64,000 nucleotides of DNA, from positions 48,524 through 112,523 of the forward strand of contig CALRFU010000002.1 of assembly GCA_943356775.1 (NCBI GenBank), read 5' to 3'. The notes beneath the pieces were generated by a model that made no database searches, was not told where the DNA came from, and saw nothing but the letters and a program-made list of their open reading frames with translations. This DNA comes from Candidatus Nomurabacteria bacterium. Lineage in GTDB: Bacteria; Patescibacteriota; Minisyncoccia; Phycocordibacterales; UBA2100. Shown here one piece after another: positions 1,355 to 40,178 of this stretch (positions within the stretch are counted from its first letter, which is position 1; each line of letters begins with the position of its first letter). The translations under genes were made by a program, and so were the position numbers.

Positions 1355-3718
1355 CTAAATGATTTCGCACGTACCGCCCACACACGCCAATTCTTTTTTC
1401 AGGTCGGTCTCGTCGGTTCTCTCGTAGATGATAAGCTTGGAGTAATCAATCTTCGGGAAAGTCGCCGCGAGACGCTCATAGGTCTTCTTGTCGATGGATT
1501 CGTACGGAGCAAGACGGTACACATGATTCTCGCGCGGCAAGAATGACAAACCGCCGATAATATCCCAATTGTCGGAAATCCAGGCGACGACCGCTACCCA
1601 CTCTTCGTCCCCTACCGAAATCGTAGCCGAGGGATTGTGTTCGGTGTAATTGAGCTTCACCATTTTCCAATATTCGAGTTGCTGCATCGCGGTAAGGTCG
1701 TTCTTGAAGACGGAACCATGCGGTGCCTTGACTGGAAACTCCAAGACAAAGGTGGTCGCCTCGTTTGCATTCTGTCCGACCTCAGGATACGCGACGACGC
1801 CCTGGTCTCGCATCATCTTGAAGAGTGAGTCGGTCGCAGAGATGCGGACGCGGCGGATGTAATACTGGGAGTGACGGGGATGGATACCGGAAGAGCAGTC
1901 GAAGGTTTGTGACACGGTACCGGATGGCTTCACACAGGTAATCGATTTTGATGCGGGGATACCGAAACGCTTTGCGTACATATCGTTTGCCTTGATAGTC
2001 GCGGTGCGCATCTTGCGCATGACCTTGGCATCGCGAACCACCGGAGAATCCCACTGCCCCGTGATGGAGACACCGAGCAAACGCTCCGCCTCACAATTCT
2101 CCGTCCACTCCTTCGAGATGTAATTGAATTTTGTGAGTGTTGATTGGTAGGTGCCGAGCAATGTCGCAAGTCTCGCTTTGCGGAGCAGGGTCTTTTCTGT
2201 ATCTTCGGCACGGGCAATCACCTCGGAGAGGTTACAGAATTCTTTGGACTGCAAGATGATCTCGCCGCAGGGATTAGTGCCCACCTGACCGATGAACGCG
2301 TTTTTCTTGCTGTGCTTCTTCTGGAGGTACTTGAGGCGACGGTCCGGCATAGTTTTCTCGAGAGATCCACGGTTGAAAATACCGCGTTCACCCGTGCCAC
2401 TTTTCATGAGAGCCACCCATTCATCCATCAATTCCGCATTCGACGGCTTGGTCTCGTAGACCGCGGAGTTATTGGCGACGCTCCGGTACGGGTCCGTAAG
2501 GAAGAACTGACCTTTTTTGGCGTCGCGGATTTCCACGTCGTCGAGGTCGGAGAGGCTGATCATTGCGGTGCGACGCACGCCGCCCGCGACTACACACTCC
2601 CCTATTTTGCAGATGATGTCGTGCGCGTCGATATTGCGGAGACGACGACCCTGACGCTTCAAGATGCGCTCACGGGCAAATCCGAGCAACGAGCGAAGCG
2701 GCTCAGGGCCCGAGGCCTTACCGCCCATCGTCTTCAGGCGTGCACCGGCGGGGCGTATCATCGAGTAATCGAATTCGACGTCCTTGCCTCCGTACCATGC
2801 GCGGAGACCGAGCGTGAGCGCATCACACCAGCCTTCTTTGGTATCGGAAACGACATGGGTTGTGAGCTTCTCGCCTATTTGTTTTTCTATCTGAGGAAGC
2901 TGTTGAACGTTTTGGCTTTCTACCGCATAGCCTACGCCGCATCCCTGCATCGACAAATACATAATTTCGCCGAAGTCCTCGAGCTTAACGGGAGCCGTGT
3001 AGGAACAATTATAGAAGCAGGTGTTGCACTTCCGTGCGGGACCGCCTGCGAATTGCATCGCACGCATGCTCGGCATAACCTCTTGAGAAAGAATCGCCTC
3101 GCGCACTTCCGCGTACTCACGCTTTGTGAGTTTGTCGCCAATATTTTCTTTCATGAATCCGACGTATCTGTCGACGGTCTCAATCCATGTCTCGCGACGC
3201 TGTTCGCTTTCTATCCAACGCGCATACGTACGGAGATATATGAACTCGCCGAGCAGATTGTTTTTGAAATATTTCTTGGATTCTTCCGCGAGCTTCTTTA
3301 CGTGCTCGGGTACTTCGCCCTGCTCCTTGCGGATTTTGCTCCTTTCGGCCCGATACAAGATGTATGCCTTCGCCGTAGCCACGTAATCGCTCAAAATGAG
3401 CTGCCGTTCCACCTCATCTTGGCAGCCTTCGACTGTCGGGAGGAAGTTTTTGTAGGTTTTTGCTATGCGCATCATTTCGCCGGCGACTTTGTGTGCAACA
3501 ACAGCCGCCTCGTCCTCCGAACCTTCGTTGGATGCGGTCATCGACTTGTAAATCACATTCACGAGCTTCTGAAATTCAAACGGCACAACGCGTCCGTCTC
3601 GTTTCTGAATATTGGAAAGATATTTTTTGTACACGCGTATAGACGCAGTATCACCCGGAGGTACTACGGCGACTCTTTCTCTACCCACACTTCTGGCGGT
3701 CCTTGTTGTCATGCGCAT
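1355..3718 (-). CDS. nrdJ: adenosylcobalamin-dependent (class II) ribonucleotide reductase with N-terminal ATP-cone
   Basis: 787 aa. ATP-cone signature IQKRDGRVVPFEFQKL. The RNR active-site region includes TNPCGEI. The C-terminal redox pair is CVGGTCEII. Size and motifs match monomeric class II RNR. Confidence 0.85.
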   Translation of the reverse strand: MRMTTRTARSVGRERVAVVPPGDTASIRVYKKYLSNIQKRDGRVVPFEFQKLVNVIYKSMTASNEGSEDEAAVVAHKVAGEMMRIAKTYKNFLPTVEGCQDEVERQLILSDYVATAKAYILYRAERSKIRKEQGEVPEHVKKLAEESKKYFKNNLLGEFIYLRTYARWIESEQRRETWIETVDRYVGFMKENIGDKLTKREYAEVREAILSQEVMPSMRAMQFAGGPARKCNTCFYNCSYTAPVKLEDFGEIMYLSMQGCGVGYAVESQNVQQLPQIEKQIGEKLTTHVVSDTKEGWCDALTLGLRAWYGGKDVEFDYSMIRPAGARLKTMGGKASGPEPLRSLLGFARERILKRQGRRLRNIDAHDIICKIGECVVAGGVRRTAMISLSDLDDVEIRDAKKGQFFLTDPYRSVANNSAVYETKPSNAELMDEWVALMKSGTGERGIFNRGSLEKTMPDRRLKYLQKKHSKKNAFIGQVGTNPCGEIILQSKEFCNLSEVIARAEDTEKTLLRKARLATLLGTYQSTLTKFNYISKEWTENCEAERLLGVSITGQWDSPVVRDAKVMRKMRTATIKANDMYAKRFGIPASKSITCVKPSGTVSQTFDCSSGIHPRHSQYYIRRVRISATDSLFKMMRDQGVVAYPEVGQNANEATTFVLEFPVKAPHGSVFKNDLTAMQQLEYWKMVKLNYTEHNPSATISVGDEEWVAVVAWISDNWDIIGGLSFLPRENHVYRLAPYESIDKKTYERLAATFPKIDYSKLIIYERTDETDLKKELACVGGTCEII

Positions 3719-6016: not shown

Positions 6017-6910
6017 CTATACACGCATTCCTTGCAGTGCGGAAATTCTTTCTTGCATGGGTGGATGCGTGCTGAAGAGCTTCGCAACGAATGCCCCCGC
6101 TTTCTGTGCTCCAAACGGATTCGAGATGAAAAGGTGCGCGGTCGCATTGCTCGCCCGCTGCATGGGAGCCGGATAGGAGGAGATTTTCTGGAGTGCGGAC
6201 GCAAGTCCGTCTGGATAGCGTGTGAGGAGTGCGCCGGATGCGTCGGCGAGGAATTCACGTTTGCGGGATATCGCGAGCTGGATGAGTTGGGCTGCGATAG
6301 GAGCAAGAATCATGGCTGCTATAACCGCGACCATCATAATCGGATTCTTGTTGTCTCTGTCTCTATCTCCGCCGAACATGCTCATGCGCAGTGCAATATC
6401 CGAAATGATGGCAAGGAAACCTACAAGTACGACGGCGACGGTCATGACGAGAATGTCGCGATTACCGACGTGCGAGAGCTCGTGCGCGAGAACTCCTTCA
6501 AGCTCCGAACGGTCCAGCGTCGCGAGGAGTCCTGTCGTCACCGCAATGACCGCATGCTTGGCATCGCGGCCGGATGCAAATGCGTTCGGCGCGGCATCAT
6601 TGATGATGTAGACGCGCGGCTTGGGGAGCCCCGCGGTGATGGCGAGATTCTCGATGATACGGTGCAATTCGATATATTCTTTTTCATCGGCGGGCTTGGC
6701 GCCGGCGGAAGCGATTGCCACTTTATCGGAGAACCAAAACGCACTCACATTCATGACAAGCGAAAATGCGACTGCGATGTAGAGAATCCCAGGATTGCCG
6801 TAATATTGCGACATGACAAATCCCACCCCCATGACGAGCGCAAGAAAGATACCCATGAGCATCCATGTGCGGAATACGTTTTTACCCTGCTGAGTGTAGA
6901 GTGATGCCAT
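6017..6910 (-). CDS. htpX: zinc metalloprotease HtpX (M48 family)
   Basis: 297 aa. HELSH zinc motif and multiple TM helices. Typical HtpX length, paired with the downstream lemA. Confidence 0.85.
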   Translation of the reverse strand: MASLYTQQGKNVFRTWMLMGIFLALVMGVGFVMSQYYGNPGILYIAVAFSLVMNVSAFWFSDKVAIASAGAKPADEKEYIELHRIIENLAITAGLPKPRVYIINDAAPNAFASGRDAKHAVIAVTTGLLATLDRSELEGVLAHELSHVGNRDILVMTVAVVLVGFLAIISDIALRMSMFGGDRDRDNKNPIMMVAVIAAMILAPIAAQLIQLAISRKREFLADASGALLTRYPDGLASALQKISSYPAPMQRASNATAHLFISNPFGAQKAGAFVAKLFSTHPPMQERISALQGMRV

Positions 6911-7504: not shown

Positions 7505-7523
7505 TTATATCATATGTGCCGAA

Positions 7524-10500
7524 TTATTGTACCGTCACGATAGCTTGTGCCGATGTGGTCGCGCCGGAGGGCGCACTACAATCGAGCACAAAGCGCGTCG
7601 TCGTGGCAAGCGCGAGCGTAGAGGTCGAACCGCGCGTTCCTGTCGCCATTGAGATATCCCCCGGCGCAAAGAGCTCGCAGCTCGACGTGTTGACACTCGA
7701 CCACGTGAGCAGTGACTTCCGTCCAGACAAGAGGCTGGTCGGATTCGCTATCAGCGTGACATATGGCTTCGGAGGTGTGGGCGTCACGACGGGCGGATTC
7801 GTTGGCTGCGTCGTAGGCGGAGTTGTTGGAGTAGTTTGTGGTGCTTGAGACCCTCCAAACAATTTACTCAATGCGCCGATGAGTCCGCTCAGCATACCTC
7901 CCAAGCCACCACCTCCCTGACCCGGGGTTTGTCCACCCTCAGGAACATTTATATCGGATGGCCCGCGCGTCACGACTGGTGGGACATAGGGAGGAGCCTT
8001 CTTCTCTGGAGGCGGGACGACAACGGGCGGATCTTTAGGGGGCACAACGGGAACTACTGGTGGCGGAGTTCCAGCACCTGGTGGTGGAATAACCACTGGT
8101 GGCGGAGTCCCGCCCGAACCATCTTTGAATGTAAAGTGAGCGATAGGAAGCGCCGCAACGACACCTCCCGCTATGGTCTTCTTTGGGTTCTCCGCCACCC
8201 AACTACCGACACTCTGAAGCCACGAGGGTTGCTCCGCCGCAGTAGGAGGAATAAGCGCATTGAATTCTGCTTCGGTAAACTTTATCCCAGTTAGGACTTC
8301 TAGTTGCTCTCGCGAAAGAGGAGCAGCTTCTGGTTGTGCGGCGGCGGTTCCTGTATTTCTCGGTTCTGGAACCACTTTCGGTTCGACTTCGAATACACCC
8401 GTCACCGGATTTTGTCTTGTCTCAACAATATCAGCGGGATTTAGTGGACGCTGCGCAACTCCCGCAGAGGGAGGTACGGCTGTTTCTTCGACAACTAATG
8501 GTCTCGAAGGTCCAACTTCGTTGGCTGCTGTACGGACGGTAGGAACGGACTCAGGCACTGTGGCTGCTGGCGGCTCTGGAACTTGTTCGTATCTCCCCGT
8601 TTTTGGATTTAGGTAAAAGTTGTCGAGATTTGTGCTGCCGCTCGGTACTGGTTCACCGGGCGTCAGACGCTCCACGACAGGTGCGGCGGTCGGAGTCTCA
8701 TTGACCGTTCGACCCCAGAGATTACTCCACGCGTCGGACGCAGAATTTTTGAGATCGTTCCACGCAAGCTGTATGTTATCTCCCGTGCGCGAGAAAAATG
8801 ATTTTTGCTCAAGAGGTACATCGAATATTGTGTTTGAGCCGGGTATCTGCTTAAGGGGTCTTACTTCACCCGCGAGTCCGTCGGCAGCATTCCGCATACG
8901 GTCTGCGAGTTCTTGTTGTCCTTTTTGCGCCACGAGGTCTGCATTTTGGCGCAGTGCCGCAAGACGCTCTGATGACCATACTTCCGCATTTCCCGCTCGC
9001 ACTTCTTGCGCGCCAGTCTCAAGCGTTTTGACAAGGTCGTCGAGCGCTTTTACTTGTGGACTCACGTTTGTAGGAAGTCCCGCATTGATATTCGCAGCAA
9101 CATCTTCCAGTGCCTTCACACCCACATTTGGTTCGGAACGAGAAGCGATATTGACATCGTCAACCGCCCGCGCGAGGTCTCTTTCAAGATTTTGAAGTCC
9201 TTGATTCGTGATGTCCCGTGGCGCCTGCTGAGTCGTCGCTGCTCCAATGCGCTCTGCTTCCGGAGCCACTCTTGGAGCTGGTTGCGCGCTGGCGCGTGCC
9301 GCCTGTGCGTCAATGAGTGCGATATCGTCGTTGACTACCCTTCCTGGCACAGCAAAGTCGTCCGCCCATTGTTGTATTTTCACTCCAGGCAATTGTGTAT
9401 TCGTTGGAATCACCCCTGGTACAGAAGTAGGCGTCTCAAGAGGGCGAACGCCACGATTGATGTCCGCAAGCGCATTCGCAAGGCGTTCTTCCGAACTGAG
9501 AATAGGCGAGGGCGTTACCCCAGCAGCAGGAGGCGGAACCTCGCTAGGGATTATCGGCGACCTCTCTGAAGCTGCACGGACTTCAGCGATGGCATCTTGT
9601 ATTTTCTGAACTTCTGGACTGACCGTCGGTGGTGCTTCAGTAGGAGGTACGGCCGGTCTCTCTGAGGCCGCCGCGCGAGTCTCGACGGCGATTCGGTCTA
9701 TCGTCTGCTGCAATTCGGCTGTCGGAGGCACTGGTCGCGCCGCCCCCGCATCTCCAGCCAATTCCCTACCCACTGCTTCAATACCAATTTCGCTCGGGTT
9801 CCGCGGAGCGACGATATTGGTGACCGGCAGATTATCTCCCACCTCACCTACTCTTACCCCGGGTAGTCGAGCCTCAGCGACGGCTACTGCAGGCACGTCG
9901 GCGACCTGCGCGAGTTCGGAACCCGCGCGCGGGAATACCGACTCCGAAAAACGACCAGGCAGAGAAAGAAGCTTCGGGGTTACTTGGGCGAGGTCTTTTG
10001 CAATCCATGCCGCCCCTATTACGTTTACCCCATGTCCAACCGCCTCGATTGTGCAAGTCGTTTGCCCGACAGCGCCGCAGCGCGCAGCCTCAAGCGTCGT
10101 TGGATTGAATCCGAGAGATTCTGGCGCAAAGCGCTCCGCAACGATTTTAGTTTCTTCGGCTAAACCACCCCAAATGAGATTTCCCGCTGCGGGAACCGCT
10201 CGCCACGATTCGAGTGCAACTCCTCCCCAATCCCCCTTTTGGTAGCTTTCCGATATGGGCGTCCACCAGTTTCCCGCGGCTTGGAGATACGGTTTTGCGT
10301 AAGCGTCGAACGTTGCGGAAGTAGGGCCTTGACCTTTTTCCATTGTGCCCAGCGCTTGTTGGAGGTTAGGGCTTAGTTCGCCGCCTCTTTTGTACGCCTG
10401 CAAATCGTTATAATTTTTCCATATCTGGTCGTATTTTGCTTGCTCTGTCTGAACACCAATGTTATATGACTGATACGTCCGACAAGACCTCCCGGAAGGA

Positions 10501-13500
10501 GCGCTCGCACAGGCTGCTACCCCCCTGTCGATTGCTTCCTCTCCCCAGGTATCGCGCATATTCTGTAACGCCGTGTACTGTTCGCCGAGCTTGTTGAGTA
10601 TCACCTCCTCCTGCTTACTAACGGTTTCTGACTTGAAGGATACTCTGTCGGCAGGCACTCCCGTTGCTAGGGGTATTTCTGCGGCTGGTTGCGGCGTAAC
10701 TACCGGCGCCTCAGGAGCATCGACTTTTGGAACTTCTGCCTGCACAACTATTGTCTGTTCCGTCGGAGGCACCCCAGGAACTGCCGAAAATTCCGGAACC
10801 GGGAGATCGGAAGCGGCAACCGTACGCACTACCGGAGGCTCCCACTTCCCTACTGCCTGGTCGGGAACGGTGACGGCGGCGACTTGTGTCGCTTCAGCCT
10901 GTACGCCTCTCGCATACTGGTCCGCGCGACTCGCCGTCATGCGAGCCTCGTGTGCGTCCCAGCCGACGCTGGTGGCTTCCCCTCGTAGAGCAGTCGCGGC
11001 AGACTGAAGTGACGTGTATTCCTTCTGAAGTACGGCCGGTGAGTCTTCGCCCGTGATAGGCGCTTGACCGGTTGCGATAATACCTCGAGCCGCGACAGCC
11101 GCATTGTCGGCCAAGGCAAGGCCGCCTGCATCTAAATTAGCGATAGCAGCCGTCAAACCAGCTTTGTAAGATTGCACTTGGGCAATCTGTGTATTAATAG
11201 ATGCTCTGTCTTCGGCATCGAGCAGAGGATTCTTGGCAAGCGCCTGAGCGTTGGTAATTACTGCGCCGAGCTGGTCCACAGCCGCGTTTGCCGGCACAAG
11301 CGCAGCCACAGTCGCGCCCATACCCTCAGCCTTTGCCTTTAGGGCAAGCGCTGAATTTAATGAACTCCTTACTTTTTGCACATCAGCGGCGAGCTTATTC
11401 GCTTCAGCCAGCTCCTGCTTTTTTTCGTCTGCCACCCTTTGCGCTTCGGCGGCTTTTGCGCGGGTTTCTCGTTCTTGCTGACTCAGGTTGTCTGCATTCT
11501 CTCGTGCTGCAATCCGGAGCGCTTCGGCATCCGCAATCTTTTTCCGCTGTTCTTCTGCTGCCGCACGCTGCTCCTCCGCAGTTTCGGAGACGGGCGCCCC
11601 TGAGGCATCGGCGATTCTCTTTGCTTCCTCTGCCTTCGCTATCTCGCGAAGTCTTTCTGATTCTGCGTCGAGTGACTTTTGTATCTCTTCCGGCGTAAGT
11701 GCGATGCTTTGAGTCTGTCTCTCTATATCCTGGATGCCTTGCTCCAGTCGCTGCTGATACGCGGCGGTTTCCTGGTCAGCTTGTGCAAGTCGAGCTTCAA
11801 GTTGCGCCCTCTCAGCAGCTTGTATTTCTGGGGACGGTGCCTCGACGGTTTGCGGCGCCTCAAACGTTACCGTTGGCACCTCTCGAGTTGCGCTCGGTTG
11901 CGGTTCATCGGCTGGCACCTCTGCGAAAGTCGGCGCTTCAGGCTCGGGAGTCGTACCGAATAATGACGCGACTTTCTCGGAGCCCCAGTTCCATATGCTT
12001 TTGCCCGCATCCGCCACCGCATTAGCGGCATTACTGAGAGTAGTCAGAGCGGAAGGCGCGGGAGCAGCGGGCGCTGGCGGCTCTGGTGAGGCAAGCCTGC
12101 GCTCTTCCGCAAGCTGCGCTGTCCTCTGGTCGAACTCGATGCCTTGCACGGCGCTATCACGCGCGAGCTGCTGACTCAGCGGTGTCATTTTGTCGTATTG
12201 GTCGAGCGGAATACTTTGTGCGATACGCTCTCGTATTTGAGCCTCAGGTATTTGTGGTGTATCAACCTTCGGAACTTCAACAGACGCCACGGGGACATCT
12301 GGCGTATTCACACCCCCCACAGGAGGTGGCGGCGCAATCTCTGGTGTCACGCTGACTTCCGGTTGCGCATCAGGGACAAAGACCAAAGGGTTCGAGATGA
12401 CGCGGTCTTGATCTTTCGGCATATCCGCTACCTGATTCTGTACGGACTGCACCATTTCGGTAAACGTCAAAGCTTGCGCCACGTCGGCGGGGATAGTCTT
12501 TACATATGACGTTTCGTTTGCCGTATTGATAGTCACTTTCACCGAACCATCCGGATTGACCTGCGCAGTATTTTCACCTACTCGCACGGTCGCGCCCGTT
12601 ACTTGATTCGTCTCAGGAGGCTCGACTGCAGCAAACTGTGGCGACTGGCTCGATGCGACATTGGCGGGTTCTCCCGCAAGAGCGATGCTACGCGTATTCG
12701 TATCGTTCAAGAACTGCTGCGTGATAGCCGCTGAACTCGGAAGATCTGTGTTGGCAACAGAAGCAATATTTCCACCACTACGGAAAGGGTTGTCACGCGG
12801 CAATGGCACATCTGCGTTTGAGGCAACGTTCGTCTGGGGTGTAGCAGTGTTGTCACTTGGCTGATAAGCAGCATAGGCACCGGTATTTTGTTCCACTGCA
12901 GCGAGCGCATCCGATGGCGAGTAGCCACCGGTTCGCGCTTGCACGTACGAGTTTGCGGCTTTCGCGGCGGCTGTATCGGCATACCACCCATCACCAGCGA
13001 CTTTTCCTTGTATTACGGCTTCGGGTGTAAATCGTACGTCAAATACACCGTCCCGAACATATTTGATACCGGTCTCTACTTGCACTTCAGCAACTGTTGA
13101 TCGTGGGAGGTCGGCGCCGACACCCGGCCCGAGATTCCCCCAATCATTCACATACATCTGCCTTGTAGCTACGACGTTGCCATCTTTATCGAGAAATTCC
13201 ATCGTGCCAGCGGTCCCGATGGGATAGAGTGACGAAGCAAAACCGCTCCCGTTGAATTTTTCACCCGAACCTGTGCCTTGAGCAGTGTAGAAAGTTGCCT
13301 TGAATTCCGCGGGGCCATCCAATCCCGTTACCCTATCGGCGTCCGCGCGACTGGGCGGTCCTTGCGCCTCAGTTAAGCGAGCATCCGAGGGAAGGTAGTA
13401 CCCTCCTTTGCCATCCGGAACGAGAGCGGAAAACGGCTTACGCGTTGTCTTCTGAGCCGCCTCCTCAAGGGCTTCGCCATACGCGCTGCTTACTCTTTCT

Positions 13501-14249
13501 TGCATACAGCTCCACCAACTATCGCAGGCCGACGTTTGAGATGTTTCTTGTTCTTGGTTTCCTGCAAATGTGGAATCTGAGTTGGTCATTGTATTCTGCG
13601 GGCCGACATCTTGTGATATCAGATTTCCATTCTGGTCACGCGGCTGAAGCTGGAACGATTGCTGATTTGGATTGAGTGGCGTCGGTGAGAAAAAGCTTCC
13701 TATCTCTTCGCGGACTTTGCCACCCAGCCCTGGATTCGCATCTATCTGTTTCAAAAGTTCCCCGACAGAATTCGCCGACGGCGACAATTCAGTCTTTTGC
13801 TGAGAGAGTGGTGTCGAGTCAAACATCATCTGCTCCAAGAGCGACCGATTGGTCGGCGTCGGCTGTTGCGTTTGCGTCGCTGGAGGCTGACCTCCTGTTA
13901 CATCTCCGGCATCAGAAATCGACGGCGGTGGGACAGTGGGCAAAGCGCATGGCTTGCCGCCACAGAATGCGGCTCGGCACACACGAGCTTCGACACAGAT
14001 ACCGTTCGCGGCTACTTGTTTGCCCTCTATGTCCTTACAGATGGTTCCGTACAAGTTGAAGAATTTCTTTCCATTTTCTTCGAATTCTGCGAGCTTCGGC
14101 CTATCGCTTCTATACACATTCGTGGCGGTGGCGAGCGGACACATGTCATCCGCTTCATCGGGATTTACTTCTGCAAAAGCGGGATTGAGAAAGGAAAAAA
14201 GCGCGAGAAAAATTAATACAACAAGAGATGCCCGCAAGGCGGTCGACAT
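7524..14249 (-). CDS. giant secreted/surface protein (2241 aa) with an RlpA/3D-like double-psi beta-barrel domain, a long coiled coil, proline-rich linkers and a C-terminal Ig-like domain
   Basis: Signal peptide MSTALRASLVVLIFLALFSFLNPAFA, then a Cys-rich N-terminal module. The segment FKATFYTAQGTGSGEKFNGSG...PIGTAGTMEF...VNDWGNLGPGVGADLPRS resembles RlpA/3D-domain proteins (ATAYTA...VNDRGP...DLS). About 250 aa are A/E/Q/K-rich coiled coil. There are PPPVV proline tracts, then a C-terminal beta-rich domain ending TVQ. The ORF is uninterrupted. Confidence 0.8.
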   Translation of the reverse strand: MSTALRASLVVLIFLALFSFLNPAFAEVNPDEADDMCPLATATNVYRSDRPKLAEFEENGKKFFNLYGTICKDIEGKQVAANGICVEARVCRAAFCGGKPCALPTVPPPSISDAGDVTGGQPPATQTQQPTPTNRSLLEQMMFDSTPLSQQKTELSPSANSVGELLKQIDANPGLGGKVREEIGSFFSPTPLNPNQQSFQLQPRDQNGNLISQDVGPQNTMTNSDSTFAGNQEQETSQTSACDSWWSCMQERVSSAYGEALEEAAQKTTRKPFSALVPDGKGGYYLPSDARLTEAQGPPSRADADRVTGLDGPAEFKATFYTAQGTGSGEKFNGSGFASSLYPIGTAGTMEFLDKDGNVVATRQMYVNDWGNLGPGVGADLPRSTVAEVQVETGIKYVRDGVFDVRFTPEAVIQGKVAGDGWYADTAAAKAANSYVQARTGGYSPSDALAAVEQNTGAYAAYQPSDNTATPQTNVASNADVPLPRDNPFRSGGNIASVANTDLPSSAAITQQFLNDTNTRSIALAGEPANVASSQSPQFAAVEPPETNQVTGATVRVGENTAQVNPDGSVKVTINTANETSYVKTIPADVAQALTFTEMVQSVQNQVADMPKDQDRVISNPLVFVPDAQPEVSVTPEIAPPPPVGGVNTPDVPVASVEVPKVDTPQIPEAQIRERIAQSIPLDQYDKMTPLSQQLARDSAVQGIEFDQRTAQLAEERRLASPEPPAPAAPAPSALTTLSNAANAVADAGKSIWNWGSEKVASLFGTTPEPEAPTFAEVPADEPQPSATREVPTVTFEAPQTVEAPSPEIQAAERAQLEARLAQADQETAAYQQRLEQGIQDIERQTQSIALTPEEIQKSLDAESERLREIAKAEEAKRIADASGAPVSETAEEQRAAAEEQRKKIADAEALRIAARENADNLSQQERETRAKAAEAQRVADEKKQELAEANKLAADVQKVRSSLNSALALKAKAEGMGATVAALVPANAAVDQLGAVITNAQALAKNPLLDAEDRASINTQIAQVQSYKAGLTAAIANLDAGGLALADNAAVAARGIIATGQAPITGEDSPAVLQKEYTSLQSAATALRGEATSVGWDAHEARMTASRADQYARGVQAEATQVAAVTVPDQAVGKWEPPVVRTVAASDLPVPEFSAVPGVPPTEQTIVVQAEVPKVDAPEAPVVTPQPAAEIPLATGVPADRVSFKSETVSKQEEVILNKLGEQYTALQNMRDTWGEEAIDRGVAACASAPSGRSCRTYQSYNIGVQTEQAKYDQIWKNYNDLQAYKRGGELSPNLQQALGTMEKGQGPTSATFDAYAKPYLQAAGNWWTPISESYQKGDWGGVALESWRAVPAAGNLIWGGLAEETKIVAERFAPESLGFNPTTLEAARCGAVGQTTCTIEAVGHGVNVIGAAWIAKDLAQVTPKLLSLPGRFSESVFPRAGSELAQVADVPAVAVAEARLPGVRVGEVGDNLPVTNIVAPRNPSEIGIEAVGRELAGDAGAARPVPPTAELQQTIDRIAVETRAAASERPAVPPTEAPPTVSPEVQKIQDAIAEVRAASERSPIIPSEVPPPAAGVTPSPILSSEERLANALADINRGVRPLETPTSVPGVIPTNTQLPGVKIQQWADDFAVPGRVVNDDIALIDAQAARASAQPAPRVAPEAERIGAATTQQAPRDITNQGLQNLERDLARAVDDVNIASRSEPNVGVKALEDVAANINAGLPTNVSPQVKALDDLVKTLETGAQEVRAGNAEVWSSERLAALRQNADLVAQKGQQELADRMRNAADGLAGEVRPLKQIPGSNTIFDVPLEQKSFFSRTGDNIQLAWNDLKNSASDAWSNLWGRTVNETPTAAPVVERLTPGEPVPSGSTNLDNFYLNPKTGRYEQVPEPPAATVPESVPTVRTAANEVGPSRPLVVEETAVPPSAGVAQRPLNPADIVETRQNPVTGVFEVEPKVVPEPRNTGTAAAQPEAAPLSREQLEVLTGIKFTEAEFNALIPPTAAEQPSWLQSVGSWVAENPKKTIAGGVVAALPIAHFTFKDGSGGTPPPVVIPPPGAGTPPPVVPVVPPKDPPVVVPPPEKKAPPYVPPVVTRGPSDINVPEGGQTPGQGGGGLGGMLSGLIGALSKLFGGSQAPQTTPTTPPTTQPTNPPVVTPTPPKPYVTLIANPTSLLSGRKSLLTWSSVNTSSCELFAPGDISMATGTRGSTSTLALATTTRFVLDCSAPSGATTSAQAIVTVQ

Positions 14250-14331
14250 CTCTACATCATAACAGCGCGGCGGCTCAATGAGCCGCCGCGCTGTTGATTA
14301 AGCATAATCACCTACTGGGTGACCTCTTCAT

Positions 14332-25003: not shown

Positions 25004-25693
25004 ATGACAAAACTATTTATTTTGCATGGATGGACGTATCAGACCGAGACATGGAAGCCGCTCCTCGGTATGCTCTCTACGCGCGGCATCGACTACGAAT
25101 TTCTCCTCATTCCTGGCCTCACCGATGGAACTGATCCTGTGTGGACGCTGGACGATTACGTACGATGGCTCGAAGAAAAGACCGCTGAATATGACAAAGT
25201 CATCCTGTATGGACATTCCAACGGCGGACGCATTTCGCTCGCCTACACTGCAAAGCATCCGGAAAAAGTTGAGCGTCTTATCCTCGAAGACAGCGCGGGT
25301 ATTCCCGCGCGGGGATTGCGTCGTTTAAAGAAAGATATTTTTAAGGCAATCTCACGAGTGGGAAAAATATTTATAGGCTCGGAGAGAGTTCGAAACATTT
25401 TATATAAGGTCATAGGAGTAAACGACTATCACGACGCTTCTCCGAACATGAAAAAAACTATGGCAAATCTTATCACCGCTGATCTCTCGCTCGTCCTAAA
25501 CAAGATACATTGTCCCACGCTCATTATCTGGGGTGCGAACGATGCGACAACGTTGCTCGTGGACGGCAAACGGATACACGGGGGCATCCGAGGATCCCGC
25601 ATGATTGTTATCCCCGATGCCCGACACTCGCCGCACATTACGCATCCAGAGAAAATGACTGAGCTCATCAAAAACGAACTCGCAACACCATGA
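25004..25693 (+). CDS. alpha/beta-fold hydrolase
   Basis: Nucleophile elbow GHSNGG (YGHSNGGRISLAY). Downstream Asp/His consistent with a catalytic triad. Confidence 0.75.
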   Translation: MTKLFILHGWTYQTETWKPLLGMLSTRGIDYEFLLIPGLTDGTDPVWTLDDYVRWLEEKTAEYDKVILYGHSNGGRISLAYTAKHPEKVERLILEDSAGIPARGLRRLKKDIFKAISRVGKIFIGSERVRNILYKVIGVNDYHDASPNMKKTMANLITADLSLVLNKIHCPTLIIWGANDATTLLVDGKRIHGGIRGSRMIVIPDARHSPHITHPEKMTELIKNELATP

Positions 25694-34425: not shown

Positions 34426-35775
34426 CTACTCGGAAGGGCTTAAGCTCCAGTCTTGAAAAGCGGTAGCGTTATTTGTCACGTTAAGCGTCTCGCCAGTTGC
34501 CGCATCGAATGTTTCGTAATTCTTCACGTTACCTTGGACAAATTCAACCACGCCAATACACTTACTCAAAGATGGGCTGTAAAACAATGCTTGCGATACT
34601 GATCCTCCGCTTTTTGAGTATTCCGTCGCTGCAGCAGTAACGACGGCAGCGTACCGCGCCTCACAGTCAGCATTTTGAGATACTGTCGCGGCAATACCTC
34701 CAGGGTTCACGTCACTTACATTCTTCTCGGTAGCCGCCGGACGCGGTGTATAGTTTTCGGGAGGCGGATCATATGCCGTGTTATTTTTTAGAGCCGAAAG
34801 GTATTCGGCAAACGTCGTACCCCGGTCATTAACACATTCCGTGGGTGATGCTGGCAGAGCGCGCCCATCAACGAGCCGATGATCCGCAGATGGTAGAGAG
34901 ATATAAAGATTGATGTTTGTGCGATTGGGCTCATATAATTTCCCATCGAAACCAATCACGGCAACTTGCTTGTCATTCAGAAGAGGAAATCCGGACTCGT
35001 CTATTTTCTCGGCCGGCTCTCCCGACGCGAGCGCGAAAAGACTTTCGCCGGACGTTCTGTATGTATATCCGTTGGAGCATGAGTATACTTGTCCTCCTCC
35101 TGGAAGATCGCCCGGTGCGTACGAAGCGGTTTCGTCGACGAGTGCGAGCCAACTGAGGGGGCCACTGCTGTTGTGCAATTCCCCAAATACGTCCTGTAAT
35201 TCGAAGCGATGATCAAGAATACACTTCGATGCGGTTATAAATTCTGATGGCGTGAGTCCTGATTTTGTGGATATTTGAAATCCTGGCTTATATGCACTGT
35301 CGCCAAATTCTTCTTGCTCGGCAGGCGGCATCACGACATCTGGGACTGCTACAGCAGCGACGATAGGATGCCCTGCGGGAAATGTTTGGTGTATCGCGTA
35401 AAACGGTTCGTCGATACCGTTATAAAGATCTTCCCATGACTTGAAGTCTCTACAATCTGTAAAATTTGCAACTGAAAAGACCTTCGATCCATTTTTATTA
35501 AGTTCGACTTGCGCATACACGCACGTACGAGATTCGATTTGTCCACCATATGTTTCGCTCATTGAGTTTCCGGTCGTGACATTCCAAGACAGGTTTTCTC
35601 CACATGAGAATGCAGCAGCCTTAGATTCTTCAGGTCTTGACCAAAAGTATGTGAGAAGTCCGACAGCAACGATGAGACCGACGATGACAAGTCCTGCAAG
35701 AGCATATTTTGACGTACCATGATCGGGTGCAACGATCGGCGCTGGTATCGTTTGCAGTTCGGAGGCAGGAGGCAT
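34426..35775 (-). CDS. hypothetical membrane-anchored extracytoplasmic protein
   Basis: 449 aa with one N-terminal TM, many N-x-S/T sequons and several Cys. No family recognised. Confidence 0.55.
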   Translation of the reverse strand: MPPASELQTIPAPIVAPDHGTSKYALAGLVIVGLIVAVGLLTYFWSRPEESKAAAFSCGENLSWNVTTGNSMSETYGGQIESRTCVYAQVELNKNGSKVFSVANFTDCRDFKSWEDLYNGIDEPFYAIHQTFPAGHPIVAAVAVPDVVMPPAEQEEFGDSAYKPGFQISTKSGLTPSEFITASKCILDHRFELQDVFGELHNSSGPLSWLALVDETASYAPGDLPGGGQVYSCSNGYTYRTSGESLFALASGEPAEKIDESGFPLLNDKQVAVIGFDGKLYEPNRTNINLYISLPSADHRLVDGRALPASPTECVNDRGTTFAEYLSALKNNTAYDPPPENYTPRPAATEKNVSDVNPGGIAATVSQNADCEARYAAVVTAAATEYSKSGGSVSQALFYSPSLSKCIGVVEFVQGNVKNYETFDAATGETLNVTNNATAFQDWSLSPSE

Positions 35776-35813: not shown

Positions 35814-37580
35814 CTACCGAATCAAGTCTCTAATCCTCGCTCTGATTTTATCAAGCTGAAAATTGAATCTTTCCGCGGCAGGCTTTAGTTGCTCAAAATA
35901 GGCTCGATCCATTCCCTCACTAATCCGATTCATCCACCTCCCCATTTCATCAACGACCTGATTGTATATCGTGTCTTTTGTTGCGGCAGCTTTAAAATCA
36001 CCCGATGCCATTTCGGCAAGTGTATTTGAAATGTGCTCACTCTCAGATTTTGCGCTGTATATACTAAGCATGCCTGGTGGTGCTGACTCAAGTTTTTCCC
36101 ACCCCGTATATGTATATGGCGCATTATTGCCGTATAAAGTTGTTGACCAGTAGTCACTATTAACGCCCATAAAATTTGGATCTAAACTCATCGGATTTTT
36201 TCTTGTGTTATTTAAAAAATGCCCCACCTCGTGCACTCCGGTGAAAAATACATCGGCGTTTGACCTCTCCGGTGCTTCCGATATGTTCAATGTGTTCACA
36301 AAGTTGAAAGGAGATCCTAAGCTGCTGCTGTCGAGTGTAATTCCGAGATTATTTCCATTACTACCTAATAACGATATGTAAATATTCTGGGGTAACTTTT
36401 CGAAAACGGCGGAATTGAAAGTCTCTCGGAGACCCCGCGTCCACACATCTGCACGATCCGCCCAATCTTGCATTGGCAAGAGATTTGGAGTTGCGCCTGT
36501 CCCACCACCTTTTGCGTCAGCGACCCCCAAGCCTACCGCAGTTTGTATATCTGTTTGCGTAAAGCCAGTAAATGAACTGAGCGAGGGTGAAGGCACAAAA
36601 GTCATCCGATTGCCGGTGGTATCTCGAAGCTGCTGGTCATAGTTTGGTATATTATATGCTTCTGCACCCATAGATCTAAATTCTTGCAACCTATTGAGGG
36701 AAATGTCCTGTGCGATGCCTGATGTTTTCACAAGTCCATCTTGATTTTGCAGTAAGCGCAATTGTTCTTGAGCGTCAATCTGCGATGTTAGACTTTTTAG
36801 TTCAGGATTGTCCGCGATTCCTTTTGCCAATGACGAAAGGTCAACATTTCTCCCCAAGTATGCATCTTCGAGTGCCGCATATCTGGCGCGAGGATCGCCC
36901 TCGTTGATCCACTCGCGAAGTGATTCGATAGGAGTGTTTCTATCTACGGTCGTTTCCTGTCCATCTGCTCCTCGCAGAGTAATTGTTTTACCATCGAGAG
37001 TATCGTTGATTCGCAATATCTCGTTTCCTGTAAAGGCGTTATAGTAGCTATAGTCAAATTTCAAGAAATACCGTGTCTCGTCCAAATCCAGCGGACTTCC
37101 AGCTTTGCCACGAAGTTGGGCACGAACATCTTCGGTTGCATAATAATCGAGTTCTTTTCCATAGTTGCTGATAATATCTTGCCACTCTTTGCGACATGCG
37201 CCTCCCCCCATCTCGGGATTACAAGGTGCTTGCGATTTTTCGGAGATCGCTTTGCACGTACCTTCTTTATCGCAGATTCGCTCCACCTTACATGAGCCTT
37301 CTTTTGTGCAGTGCCCCTTGAGTGTATCGCCACTCGATTCTTTATCCGAACATTGCACCTTCGTAATATCTTCGAGTTTGCCGAGTTGATTCTTGCAAAA
37401 CTCGTTTGCGGATTTGCTTCCGGACGATGCCTGCGTTTCTGGTTCAGCCGCAGCACCAGCCGCAAATAAAGTATCTTTTTGTGGTTTGAAATCCATCAAG
37501 GCGATTGCAAACGAAATGAATACGACGAGAGCCGCGATTGTCAAAATCGGTAGAATCCCCCCCCCTGACTTCTCAACCAT
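35814..37580 (-). CDS. putative membrane-anchored zinc metallopeptidase (HExxH)
   Basis: 588 aa. N-terminal TM, Cys-rich region, and a single HEVGHF motif. A TATAAT box lies 10 nt upstream of the ATG, suggesting a leaderless mRNA. Confidence 0.55.
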   Translation of the reverse strand: MVEKSGGGILPILTIAALVVFISFAIALMDFKPQKDTLFAAGAAAEPETQASSGSKSANEFCKNQLGKLEDITKVQCSDKESSGDTLKGHCTKEGSCKVERICDKEGTCKAISEKSQAPCNPEMGGGACRKEWQDIISNYGKELDYYATEDVRAQLRGKAGSPLDLDETRYFLKFDYSYYNAFTGNEILRINDTLDGKTITLRGADGQETTVDRNTPIESLREWINEGDPRARYAALEDAYLGRNVDLSSLAKGIADNPELKSLTSQIDAQEQLRLLQNQDGLVKTSGIAQDISLNRLQEFRSMGAEAYNIPNYDQQLRDTTGNRMTFVPSPSLSSFTGFTQTDIQTAVGLGVADAKGGGTGATPNLLPMQDWADRADVWTRGLRETFNSAVFEKLPQNIYISLLGSNGNNLGITLDSSSLGSPFNFVNTLNISEAPERSNADVFFTGVHEVGHFLNNTRKNPMSLDPNFMGVNSDYWSTTLYGNNAPYTYTGWEKLESAPPGMLSIYSAKSESEHISNTLAEMASGDFKAAATKDTIYNQVVDEMGRWMNRISEGMDRAYFEQLKPAAERFNFQLDKIRARIRDLIR

Positions 37581-37712: not shown

Positions 37713-38114
37713 TTATGTTCTTGGGAAAAACTGTTGCACAAGGCGTATGATCTGTTTGAACTGCCCCTGCGGCAACTTATGCATATACCTTTGTAAACGC
37801 TTACTGCTTATGAGTCGCAATTGAGAGAGGATGACTGCCGAATTTGAATCGCCGACGGTGATTGGAACATAATAACGGTTCTCTTTACTGGAACGCGTGA
37901 GTGGCAAAACCCACAGGACGTCCCGATTGAATTTCTTTATGACTAGCATAGGGCGCTCGAAAAGCTCATTCGTACCATCCTGCTCGAATCCGATATTAAC
38001 ACCAAGCGAACACCACCAAATCTCACGCTCGTGAAAAAACACCTCGCCTTCTCGAGCATGGATTTTTTTCTTTTGTTCGTTCCACCGATCAAAATTCTTT
38101 GGTTGCATGCGCAC
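37713..38114 (-). CDS. PemK/MazF-family endoribonuclease toxin, solitary
   Basis: GFEQDGTNELFERPMLVIKK and SAVILSQLRLISSKRL align to the MazF/EndoA core (GSEQGGVRPVLVIQN, DSVILLEQIRTIDKQRL). The start overlaps or abuts the stop of the upstream serine hydrolase (TAGTG). No antitoxin-sized ORF lies on either side. Confidence 0.65.
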   Translation of the reverse strand: MRMQPKNFDRWNEQKKKIHAREGEVFFHEREIWWCSLGVNIGFEQDGTNELFERPMLVIKKFNRDVLWVLPLTRSSKENRYYVPITVGDSNSAVILSQLRLISSKRLQRYMHKLPQGQFKQIIRLVQQFFPRT

Positions 38115-39112
38115 TATTGTACCAGGAGAATATCTGCGATATCGGTGCGGAAGGTATTGATTGCGGAGTGAATTGAAGAAGCGTCAGGCGGGCGCTTGGG
38201 GTAGGTGCGATTTGAAAGAATGACAAACGCGATGCCGCGCTCGATGTCGCATACAACGGAGGTGCCCGTAAACCCGGTTTTGCCAAACACGCTCGCTCCA
38301 GCATGAGAACCTGCAAACCAAGGTTCAGCGCGCTGCCAACCGAGACCTCTTTGTGCCCCCTCGACAACACTGGGATATTTTCCTTGCAAAAGCGCTTCGA
38401 GAATATTCAAAATGTCGGGCGCATTCGAAAATAATCCTGCATGCCCCACGGCGCGTCCAGCTTTTGCGAATACACGCGCACTTTCGTCGTGCACGATGCC
38501 ACGCACTTCTCCGTAGACATCAACCTCCGTCGGGGAAATGTTCGACTTCGTAAGTCGAACATTTGGGAAGAAGGTGGTGTGCGACATCTTGAGTGGATCG
38601 AAAAAATATTTCTGTGCAAGCGCATCAAGCGACTCTCCTAGGGCGCGCTCGACAACGAGTCCAAGTAAAAACCCTGGAAGATTAGTGTATTCGGACTTCC
38701 CCGGCGGAGCATCGAACCCATGGGCAAAAATGTACGCTGATATTTCCTCAGGTTTTTTATCCTTTAGTGTCGACATTTGCACCCCGCGCACTCGATACAT
38801 AAGCAGGTCTTCAATCGTTGCCCCATGGTCGTTCTGTAATTCAGGTATGAACTTCTTAACTCCGTCCGAGAGTTCGAACTTCTCTTTATTCAGAAAATTC
38901 AATGCGAGTGATGCTGTGGGAATAGACTTGGTTACCGAAGCAAGATCATAGATTGTGTCCTCGCGAACAGCAGGCGCGTCCGTGTCATAGGTGAGATTGC
39001 CGAACGACCTAACCTCCCGTTCACCTGATTTTTTTACGACACCGACGACACACCCCGGAAATACTTTTTCCGCGATGGCTTTTTCCGCTCGAGCCTTGAC
39101 GTCGCTAGGCAT
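38114..39112 (-). CDS. serine hydrolase, beta-lactamase/PBP4*-like (class C fold)
   Basis: S-x-x-K motif ASVTKS. Start trimmed to MPSDVKARAEK (39112), which leaves a 6-nt gap to the upstream gene. Confidence 0.75.
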   Translation of the reverse strand: MPSDVKARAEKAIAEKVFPGCVVGVVKKSGEREVRSFGNLTYDTDAPAVREDTIYDLASVTKSIPTASLALNFLNKEKFELSDGVKKFIPELQNDHGATIEDLLMYRVRGVQMSTLKDKKPEEISAYIFAHGFDAPPGKSEYTNLPGFLLGLVVERALGESLDALAQKYFFDPLKMSHTTFFPNVRLTKSNISPTEVDVYGEVRGIVHDESARVFAKAGRAVGHAGLFSNAPDILNILEALLQGKYPSVVEGAQRGLGWQRAEPWFAGSHAGASVFGKTGFTGTSVVCDIERGIAFVILSNRTYPKRPPDASSIHSAINTFRTDIADILLVQ

Positions 39113-40178
39113 TTGGATAGGCCTCTTTAATTTCCTTCGCCAAGTACGGATTCCACATGGCGCCGGTTGCAGACATGACGACATCGGCGCCGGCATCGCG
39201 ATATTCTTTGAAGTCTGTGGGCACCGTAACGCCACCGCTTCCGATAATCGCGTATTTCATGCCGAATTCTTCGCGTAGCGACTTAAGGCGACGCACCATA
39301 TCGAGCCCCGCCCACTTGACCGCATGTCCGCAGATACCGCTCCTCACGCGATGAGCGCCAGGAAGCGCTTGCGTGCCGTCGGGGTTTATTACGGGTGCCG
39401 GGATGGTGTTGATAGCCGCAAAGCCATCCACTACGGTGCCGACTTCTTTTACTAATTCTCGAAGTGACGGCTCATCAAAATACGCAATCTTGATGACGAG
39501 GGGTGTATCACCTATTTTGTTTTTTATCCTTTCAGAAACGATTCTTACTTTTGGCACATCGAAACACAAGAGCTGGGCTGCGCCTTCGTTCGGACAACTA
39601 AAATTTGCCTCAACAACTTTCACGCCGGAATCCTTCAACATCTGCATACCGTTTGTCCAATCATTGATGTAATCTTCGGTCGTAAAATTCTCTTCCCATT
39701 TCGTACCTTCGAAACTGCACATCACAAGCTGTCCCGGTTTTGCGTACGCGATACACTCGCGCAGATCTTTTTGCCAGACCCCTGGCAAATACGAGGGATT
39801 TCCGAATGAATTCGTTATTGAGAGCGGCTCTTTGTATTCGTTGCGAACGACAATCGGATTGTTCGCTTTTTCGAGGGTAAGGTCGCCATCAATGTCGGCA
39901 CCAAGAACGTTGGGCCATTCGTTAGACTCACGTATGCGGCTGCGAACCGTTTTGTGCACGGGCACATCGAAACCTTTGTCGAGCGCAGCCTTCACGAATT
40001 TTGCATTGAGAAGTGGCCCAGCGGGAATCCCGAGAGGATATGAAAGCTTTGTCCCGAGGAAATCAAACCGGGGCTCTCCTTGCGGAAGGACAACTCCATC
40101 TGCAAATCCATTAAAAGGTCCTTCCTCCCAATTTTCGGAGTAGGTCTTATTGGGGTCGAAGAAGGGAGGCTGCAACAT
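39105..40178 (-). CDS. dihydroorotate dehydrogenase family protein (class 1-like TIM barrel with catalytic Cys)
   Basis: GIPAGPLLNAKF... and the class-1A-type NFSCPN motif. Start trimmed to MLQPPFF to avoid a 31-nt overlap with the HD-domain gene. The N-terminal extension is unusual. Confidence 0.7.
   Translation of the reverse strand: MLQPPFFDPNKTYSENWEEGPFNGFADGVVLPQGEPRFDFLGTKLSYPLGIPAGPLLNAKFVKAALDKGFDVPVHKTVRSRIRESNEWPNVLGADIDGDLTLEKANNPIVVRNEYKEPLSITNSFGNPSYLPGVWQKDLRECIAYAKPGQLVMCSFEGTKWEENFTTEDYINDWTNGMQMLKDSGVKVVEANFSCPNEGAAQLLCFDVPKVRIVSERIKNKIGDTPLVIKIAYFDEPSLRELVKEVGTVVDGFAAINTIPAPVINPDGTQALPGAHRVRSGICGHAVKWAGLDMVRRLKSLREEFGMKYAIIGSGGVTVPTDFKEYRDAGADVVMSATGAMWNPYLAKEIKEAYPNA

Follow-up and report, generated by a model that had tools for sequence, protein, structure and literature searches.

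A giant exported protein with a swapped, putatively wall-directed module at a fixed locus of Kaiserbacteria-like bacteria

The 64,000-nucleotide stretch of DNA analysed here (hereafter "the window"; contig CALRFU010000002.1, Candidatus Nomurabacteria bacterium) contains a minus-strand gene of 2241 codons, which we refer to as the giant gene. We found that it belongs to a small family of orthologous genes in the candidate phyla radiation (CPR), that its product is very probably exported, and that, as judged by alignment of its relatives, it evolves by the exchange of whole cassettes. Near the N-terminus lies a slot which in the window's protein (the query) holds a highly divergent RlpA-type double-psi beta-barrel (DPBB), and which in several of its orthologues holds other modules apparently directed at peptidoglycan. 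What is new is the combination of a chromosomally fixed scaffold with a wall-directed head and a centre that are swapped as cassettes, including modules of the type that phages use for injection. We put the chances at about even that the protein acts as a host-directed surface tether or wall breacher.

The giant gene, its export and its putatively wall-directed module

The giant gene is a real gene. The original prediction had reported an open reading frame (ORF) of 2241 amino acids (aa) on the minus strand, and this was borne out by stop statistics, codon usage, identical proteins and homologues at the same locus. At 55% GC, where a stop is expected in ~3.9% of codons, the probability of a stop-free run of 2241 random codons is ~1e-39. 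We trained a codon-usage score on nine genes of the window that Pfam confirms; it gave a log-likelihood per codon of +0.06 for the annotated frame, which opens with ATG, and of -0.37 and -0.41 for the two shifted frames. The score is lower than that of housekeeping genes because the amino-acid composition of the product is unusual (14% Ala, 9% Pro). Contigs of two other assemblies, one from Logan and one from ENA, encode a protein identical to it over all 2241 aa; thus, the concern that re-sequencing might reveal frameshifts that break the ORF does not apply to this allele. The plus-strand ORFs inside the gene had been regarded as artefacts, and their codon scores agree with this view: 12 of the 14 were negative, a further one was close to zero, and the last, which lies at the 3' edge (7516-7848), reached +0.06.

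As had been predicted, the protein carries the marks of secretion. Its first 26 residues form the sole strongly hydrophobic window of the protein (Kyte-Doolittle 2.25) and end in AFA, followed by a Glu; on reading the sequence, no lipobox Cys was found at this signal peptide. The whole protein contains 14 Cys, which make up seven close or domain-internal pairs, an arrangement that would fit an extracytoplasmic, disulfide-bonded protein. Together, the signal peptide and the Cys pairs support Sec-dependent export of the giant protein.

The slot module of the query consists of a conserved LVPDGKGGY lead-in, a DPBB core and a GDGWYAD helical tail (Table 1). When a profile of this module was searched with hmmsearch against all 1.84 billion representative proteins, it returned only seven matches, comprising four family representatives (the only carriers of the query-type module among these 1.84e9 proteins), two DPBB_1 proteins and one spurious hit. 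The two DPBB_1 proteins, P0012 and P0013, were matched at library-wide E values of 1.8e-5 and 9.3e-5; both are tandem RlpA-like proteins (Pfam DPBB_1 E 2.6e-50 and 4.8e-46), and the profile matches fall on their DPBB_1 domains. The spurious hit, to the MucBP repeat protein P0011, was rejected as a short repeated match ("DQDGKVIKT"). Comparison by hhalign of the module with six verified or near-threshold DPBB_1 domains gave a probability of 91.6% (P 8.3e-7), with 34% identity over 82 columns, which is the whole domain.

The module also retains the landmarks of RlpA-like DPBB lytic transglycosylases (PF03330; Pseudomonas aeruginosa RlpA; PA4485, PDB 4avr), namely T.SGE.F, P.GT and ND.G...D[LV]. 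In the DPBB alignment, which includes PA4485, the query residues G371, D380 and G401 are invariant. N368-D369-W-G371 and D380-L381 of the query correspond to the ND.G...D[LV] motif, and D380 is the Asp of "..IDL," which we equate with the Asp that is catalytic in MltA and RlpA. In P0010, a distant family member, K-E replaces the N-D of ND.G, and the second Asp is kept. In contrast to RlpA-like proteins, the query module lies beyond the reach of the Pfam model, is embedded in a protein of 2241 aa, bears the lead-in and tail extensions described above, and has an insertion (DKDGNVVATRQ) in the second strand pair.

The most fitting description of the core is therefore, in our view, a highly divergent DPBB_1 domain of the RlpA type that bears extensions peculiar to the family. 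It does not qualify as RlpA proper: the protein has neither a lipobox Cys, and hence no lipoprotein signal, nor a match to the SPOR domain in Pfam. The original prediction had called this segment RlpA/3D-like; the RlpA half of that label is upheld by hhalign, hmmsearch and the motif, whereas the 3D half (PF06725) found no Pfam match. The case illustrates that a domain invisible to Pfam may be assigned by comparing what orthologues hold in the same slot and by exhaustive profile search.

Cassette exchange at a conserved locus

The family is small. We found ten proteins among 5.8 billion clusters, and a profile search with the ten-sequence family alignment added no further members. When the C-terminal domain was used to scan 185,579 species genomes, two family loci emerged, labelled Kaiserbacteria and "Nomurabacteria," and scanning JGI metagenomes with the N-terminal motifs yielded three, one of which is a new variant (L017). 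The total is ~11 members, all in Kaiserbacteria-like CPR genomes and mostly from groundwater. With one homologue named Candidatus Kaiserbacteria and syntenic loci, these data support the earlier assignment of the DNA to a small-genome CPR lineage. Wherever flanking DNA sufficed (loci with P0001, P0005, P0007, P0009 and P0010), the gene order was SecG (on the opposite strand), GroES, GroEL, the giant gene, LemA and an M48 peptidase. Because they occupy the same position at all of these loci, the giant genes are positional orthologues within a narrow clade of Parcubacteria.

Identity between these orthologues changes abruptly along the protein. Relative to P0002, query residues 201-650 and 1601-1850 are 100% identical (the latter block also to P0003), but identity drops to 46% over residues 1-100 and to only 14-36% over residues 900-1500. 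Relative to P0004, residues 701-800 are 100% identical, most N-terminal windows are 64-94% identical with dips to 42-52%, and the centre falls to ~20%. As far as aligned sequences can show it, these patterns show that the gene evolves by whole-cassette exchange. Neither a tandem-repeat search nor self-BLAST detected internal repeats in the giant gene at the DNA or protein level, so the variation is not repeat-driven.

Two alleles of the groEL-giant-lemA locus occur in a single metagenome-assembled genome, GCA_965067325.1, on separate short contigs (L012, 8.9 kb; L014, 11.5 kb), each of which is cut off within groEL and within the M48 gene. We read this as a sign either that strains differ at the locus or that the bin is mixed. 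The allele on L012, which encodes P0002, has an extra G (GG to GGG) at 6540-6550 of that contig, equivalent to about 8706 in the window; the frame shifts after residue ~1841, leaving ORFs of 1843 and 402 aa. P0003, on another contig, stops at the same place as the first of these ORFs. The frameshift could reflect pseudogenisation, phase variation or a recurrent assembly error.

The exchange extends to the slot that follows the CDSWW.C motif. The divergent DPBB of the query type occupies it in the query, P0002-P0005 and P0010. In P0006, P0007 and the L017 variant it is occupied by other DPBBs, each different, which fall just short of the Pfam DPBB_1 threshold (E 5.6e-5, 4.1e-6 and 3.1e-5, respectively). 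In P0008 (residues ~276-381; locus L016) and P0009 (~270-367; loci L003/L018) the slot contains an unrelated module, for which there is no Pfam model; it matches Gp29 of PDB entry 9vvp (E 1.3e-9) and the PHROGs families tail length tape measure, endolysin and tail injection transglycosylase. The canonical DPBB profile likewise matches a cyanophage baseplate hub protein. Thus, to judge from these profile matches, the slot always holds a peptidoglycan-directed module, either one of four DPBB types or a phage-injection-type lysin, and these would be the kinds of module that phages use at cell walls.

One allele carries what may be a further cargo. P0004 (gene at L014 1107-8747) contains a Zeta_toxin P-loop kinase domain at residues 1663-1754, scoring 27.3 bits against a Pfam cut-off of 22.3; a Walker A motif (GGAGAGKTS) precedes it within the same region. 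Directly after the P0004 gene lies an extra gene of 225 aa encoding an HD_4/HD phosphohydrolase (L014 8786-9463), which is absent from the other loci. The Zeta domain and the HD_4 gene look like a toxin-antidote pair.

Architecture of the protein and its surroundings

The features of the giant gene are collected in Table 1. In the head of the protein, we recognised the Cys-rich module that had been predicted to follow the signal peptide: six Cys lie between residues 37 and 101, of which C91 is conserved to at least 90% in the ten-sequence family alignment and the other five (C37, C71, C85, C96 and C101) do not vary at all. The predicted Q/P-rich low-complexity stretch is also present (residues 105-135) and gives way to a series of linear motifs, SPSANSV..LLKQ, FFSPTPLNPNQ.SFQLQPRD.NGN, DVGPQNT.T..STF and CDSWWSC, that are specific enough to pull out new family loci. 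This region (residues 106-272) is 51-76% identical to the query in proteins that are only 23-48% identical overall; despite its low-complexity look, it ranks with the C-terminal domain among the best-conserved parts of the family. A disordered linker would not be expected to be so well conserved, which suggests that a conserved partner binds here.

Table 1. Features of the giant gene and its upstream region, with residues in the protein and positions in the window
Feature	Residues	Position	Strand	Basis
Giant gene, complete, 2241 codons plus stop	1-2241	7524..14249	-	ORF, codon score, identical proteins
Predicted Sec-type signal peptide (MSTALRASLVVLIFLALFSFLNPAFA, followed by E)	1-26	14172..14249	-	hydrophobicity, AxA motif
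N-terminal 6-Cys module	27-105	13935..14171	-	family alignment
Q/P-rich stretch, then conserved linear motifs	106-272	13434..13934	-	family identity
Exchangeable slot module, query type	275-463	12861..13427	-	family alignment
Divergent RlpA-type DPBB_1-like core	313-412	13014..13313	-	hhalign, hmmsearch, motif
Acidic, Pro-/Ala-rich low-complexity region with short beta-like patches	464-804	11838..12860	-	composition
A/E/K/Q/R-rich helical region with heptad periodicity	805-965	11355..11837	-	period-3.5 power
Ala-rich, probably helical continuation	966-1130	10860..11354	-	periodicity p ~0.035
Conserved central domain	1198-1450	9900..10658	-	alignment with P0004, P0006, P0007, P0008
Pro/Ala-rich spacer with short Trp-rich amphipathic motifs	1451-2020	8190..9899	-	composition
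Weakly hydrophobic Gly-rich segment	2024-2041	8127..8180	-	Kyte-Doolittle
PPPVV proline-rich tract	2046-2097	7959..8114	-	40% Pro in window 2051-2100
Gly-rich amphipathic segment GGGGLGGMLSGLIGALSKLFGG	2112-2133	7851..7916	-	sequence reading
C-terminal Ig-like beta-sandwich	2163-2241	7527..7763	-	AF2, Foldseek
GC-rich hairpin, 15 bp, between groEL stop (14332) and giant ATG (14249)		14263..14293	-	folding energy of the 91-nt intergenic stretch

Downstream of the slot, the composition profile revealed the long acidic/Ala-rich regions that had been described. The first of the low-complexity regions (residues 464-804) gave no family or PDB match. It is followed by a helical region whose hydrophobic power at period 3.5 is 53, versus 10 +/- 10 in shuffles (p ~0.004-0.008); within it, over residues 865-935, the a/d positions are strongly hydrophobic in just 0.2-0.3 of cases. 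The sole database echo was a weak SMC-like NCBIfam match over residues 813-1040 (E 0.025), which we took as coiled-coil noise. We would call this region a weak coiled coil or single helix of ~160 aa. The 250-aa coiled coil of the original prediction is therefore retained as a heptad signal over residues 805-965, in a shorter and weaker form than the clean 250 aa proposed. Its probably helical continuation lies within the hypervariable centre and is 12-30% identical to P0002.

The conserved central domain contains two close Cys pairs (C1247/C1256 and C1391/C1399) and an invariant KGQG motif, and it has no Pfam or PDB match. Searches with the rest of the protein were similarly unproductive: the whole protein and four excised segments gave no Pfam match at E<=10, the query had no match in PHROGs or PADLOC, and PDB sequence searches with the central-domain profile and the whole protein returned only noise. 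A PDB match to the CRP1 LIM domain (E 0.0012) was rejected as the product of Gly/Cys-rich composition.

Toward the C-terminus, a Gly-rich segment may serve as a membrane or envelope anchor. Its Kyte-Doolittle value is below 1.2 in the query and 1.6-2.0 at the equivalent place in P0004, P0006 and P0008. The expected PPPVV tracts come next, then an amphipathic segment and a P/T linker that leads to the terminal domain. For this domain, which had been predicted as a terminal beta or immunoglobulin (Ig)-like fold, AlphaFold 2 (AF2) gave seven strands with a predicted local distance difference test score (pLDDT) of 88.7 from a seven-sequence alignment. Foldseek matched the model to SoxY/Z, FN3-like, PKD and CEACAM domains (E 4e-4 to 1e-2; template modelling score, TM, ~0.6-0.69), and no specific Pfam family was matched. 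The domain has a conserved Cys pair (C2191/C2224); over its length, five family members share 66-79% of residues with the query, and P0007 shares 37%. A secreted protein of Steroidobacteraceae, otherwise unrelated, has a related Ig-like domain just before a C-terminal tail that resembles a sorting signal. This indicates that the C-terminal domain is of an extracellular type, and it is accordingly unlikely that the protein crosses the membrane in one C-terminal helix and ends in the cytoplasm. The most distant member, P0010 (Kaiserbacteria HYW59_01260, L007), lacks the hydrophobic, Pro-rich and Ig-like end and has two copies of a "YTGT..QN.ALL..L" motif instead; thus, the C-terminal end is exchangeable, too.

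In the window, the giant gene neighbours groEL, lemA, M48, RNR, OppA and RNase J. The 91-nt intergenic stretch between groEL and the giant gene has a folding energy of -44.9 kcal/mol (z -6.8 versus shuffles) and contains a strong, GC-rich hairpin. The hairpin has no proper U-tract and ends 13 nt from the ATG of the giant gene, and the best promoter-like site lies upstream of groES. Because the hairpin leaves no space for a promoter of its own, we suggest that the giant gene is expressed by attenuated read-through from groESL. The hairpin may attenuate this read-through or may stabilise the groESL mRNA.

The locus is an insertion hot spot. Between lemA and the M48 gene, three loci carry on the opposite strand a SleB-like cell-wall hydrolase (Hydrolase_2; L007 13350-14057, L014 10307-11005 and L015 13526-14236), and another carries a DUF2207 membrane-protein gene (L005 14365-16314). 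An unannotated ORF of 329 aa lies between groEL and the giant gene at L015 4825-5814. None of these three kinds of insertion is present in the window.

Elsewhere in the window we noted several genes with possible connections to the cell wall. An ORF of 742 aa (25690-27918, plus strand) fuses a DegT/DnrJ/EryC1 aminotransferase to a FemAB peptidyltransferase/GNAT domain, an unusual pairing for the modification of cell-wall precursors. On the minus strand are genes for a GH18 glycosyl hydrolase (48608-49813), a protein with PG_binding_1 and IPT/TIG domains (50556-51980) and a beta-lactamase/PBP-like protein (38114-39235). Two adjacent minus-strand ORFs of 449 and 588 aa (34426-35775 and 35814-37580) had no Pfam match at E<=0.001.

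Possible roles of the giant protein

Module swapping, phage-type modules and mosaicism make it plausible that the protein grips or breaches the wall of another cell. The giant protein would be a Sec-exported, disulfide-stabilised, elongated protein associated with the envelope. Its DPBB module may bind, and would probably cleave, the glycan strands of peptidoglycan, while the C-terminal region could hold the protein on the producer's own envelope. The spacer would then hold the wall-directed module out towards a neighbouring (host) cell, where it could engage the peptidoglycan and open it locally, and cassette swapping would track host or phage pressure. We favour such a foreign target because the family is confined to a narrow lineage, its head is replaced between strains, its modules include phage types and one allele has toxin-like cargo. 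Published proposals also argue for it: surface lytic transglycosylases of patescibacteria have been proposed to compromise host envelopes (PMC11665869), and the giant SPEARE proteins discussed below offer an analogy (PMC6642349).

Several observations weigh against this interpretation. The Pfam models DPBB_1 and 3D matched neither the whole protein nor the excised segment, even at E<=10. AF2 modelled the DPBB segment poorly (pLDDT 45.3, from an alignment of just four sequences), and Foldseek found no significant match for this model, with none at E<0.3; a match to MltA (E 0.78, 41 columns) was non-significant and came from the poor model, and cerato-platanin and a cyanophage hub appeared as non-significant matches only and were not counted. 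Searched against PDB sequences, the module profile returned only noise and matched no solved structure. Enzymatic activity is not certain either: in expansins, for example, DPBB domains bind glycans but do not cleave them. The query shows no clear anchor, as it has no LPXTG motif and its hydrophobic segment is marginal. The blocks of 100% identity could in part be chimeras of metagenome assembly, although the existence of several unrelated cassettes is robust to this. Finally, the giant gene is placed among housekeeping genes, the genome encodes peptidoglycan synthesis of its own (a Mur ligase, FemAB and GlmS in the window), and the known role of RlpA, in daughter-cell separation, is self-directed (PMC6895207).

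The last three points raise the possibility that the protein remodels the producer's own peptidoglycan during growth or division, as RlpA does, with the spacers and Ig-like domain serving only to position the module in its own envelope or surface layer (S-layer). The position of the gene is vertically inherited, apparently within one same-strand cluster with groESL and lemA-M48, which suits such a role. However, a family of ~11 proteins in a narrow clade is not CPR-wide, extreme mosaicism and a swapped catalytic-type module would be unusual for a housekeeping autolysin, and neither the phage-injection-type modules of some orthologues nor the Zeta-toxin domain of another is readily expected of one; the SPOR domain and lipobox of RlpA proper are also missing. 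We consider self-directed remodelling unlikely, though worth serious attention. If the mosaicism is instead taken as the mark of an exposed surface protein, for which a hypervariable centre between conserved ends is typical, the giant protein may be a structural surface-layer or fibre protein that varies because phages use it as a receptor, its DPBB being a non-catalytic glycan-binding anchor to its own wall. Hypervariable surface-protein genes that fragment assemblies are known in CPR bacteria (PMC6851277). Yet the query type retains the invariant D380 and the ND.G motif, the orthologues swap in lysin-type modules rather than generic wall-binding repeats, and no SLH-type or other structural-repeat family was detected. 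DPBB domains can bind without catalysis, which would suit an anchor; overall, we regard a purely structural role as distinctly improbable.

The phage-like and toxin-like modules invite two further explanations. Together with cassette exchange, the phage-injection-type modules of orthologues and the Zeta_toxin domain of P0004 (above the Pfam cut-off), with its adjoining HD_4 gene as a possible immunity gene, would be compatible with a platform akin to polymorphic toxins, which delivers exchangeable toxic modules to a target cell and uses the lytic module for penetration. We think this very unlikely for the protein of the window: it has no toxin domain in Pfam, NCBIfam, PADLOC or PHROGs, it is followed by the conserved lemA rather than by a variable immunity gene, its family's variable modules lie within the protein and not at the C-terminus as in classical polymorphic toxins, and no dedicated secretion system lies nearby. 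A long, Ala-rich, helical protein with an embedded wall-lytic-type module, whose orthologues match phage tape-measure and injection families, could also be a prophage remnant such as a tape-measure or ejection protein. Genomic context and a scan of viral contigs largely refute such an origin, and we hold it to be extremely improbable: the protein has an N-terminal signal peptide, no phage genes are found nearby, the gene keeps its syntenic place among housekeeping genes, PHROGs gave no match to the query, and a scan of 2.9 million viral contigs brought up no relative of the module.

Among known systems, large secreted wall-lytic proteins of epibionts or predators and hypervariable surface genes of CPR bacteria are established themes, and no described family includes the giant protein as a whole. 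Phage puncturing and injection proteins, such as the hub of cyanophage A-1(L) with its DPBB (PDB 8kea), Gp29 (9vvp) and the PHROGs families, are alike in that they are long, largely helical or extended and bear a small peptidoglycan-directed module with which to pass a wall, and they share with the giant family the same two module types, DPBB and Gp29-type. In contrast to them, the giant gene is chromosomal, its product is predicted to be Sec-exported, and it sits in housekeeping synteny with neither phage neighbours nor relatives on viral contigs. The SPEARE proteins of Nanohaloarchaeota (DPANN), for which a role in host interaction has been proposed and which carry protease, laminin-G, toxin-like and restriction-enzyme domains (PMC6642349), resemble the giant protein as giant, mostly extracytoplasmic and modular proteins of ultrasmall symbionts, with a hydrophobic segment near the C-terminus and variable outer parts. 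There is no sequence relationship between the two; the giant protein is bacterial and far smaller, and it consists of a DPBB, a helical spacer and an Ig-like domain. Giant genes of Omnitrophota have been implicated in the degradation of prey walls (bioRxiv 10.1101/2023.11.21.568195) and likewise encode very large secreted proteins with a wall-lytic-type domain in putative epibionts or predators, but the present family is unrelated to them and much smaller. The hypervariable genes described in CPR bacteria are similar as loci that fragment assemblies, whereas the giant family varies by cassette replacement and not by short tandem repeats. With polymorphic toxins the family has in common conserved ends, exchangeable internal or terminal modules and one allele with a Zeta-toxin domain and an adjoining extra gene; it differs from them in that the window allele has no recognisable toxin or variable immunity gene and appears to take the plain Sec route.

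Taking the host-directed interpretation to its furthest extent, the family might be a chromosomally fixed, cassette-swapping, Sec-only wall-breaching harpoon of Kaiserbacteria-like epibionts, in which recombination would arm a conserved scaffold for export and anchoring with alternative heads that open peptidoglycan (DPBB variants or lysins of the phage-injection type) and, in some alleles, with intracellular toxins (a Zeta kinase with an HD_4 antidote). We offer this as a long shot; if true, CPR bacteria would possess a contact-dependent system for host entry or effector delivery that has not been described before. Were the protein to act on the producer's own wall, it would be less remarkable: an autolysin that is unusual, giant and quick to evolve. 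To our knowledge, apart from type IV pili, little has been established about how ultrasmall CPR bacteria attach to a host and draw resources from it. The giant family provides a concrete candidate: one large, apparently exported protein whose head is swapped between strains while its scaffold and position stay fixed. If it is directed at hosts, its variable cassettes would be markers of host range, and its slot modules would be a source of very divergent peptidoglycan-active domains.

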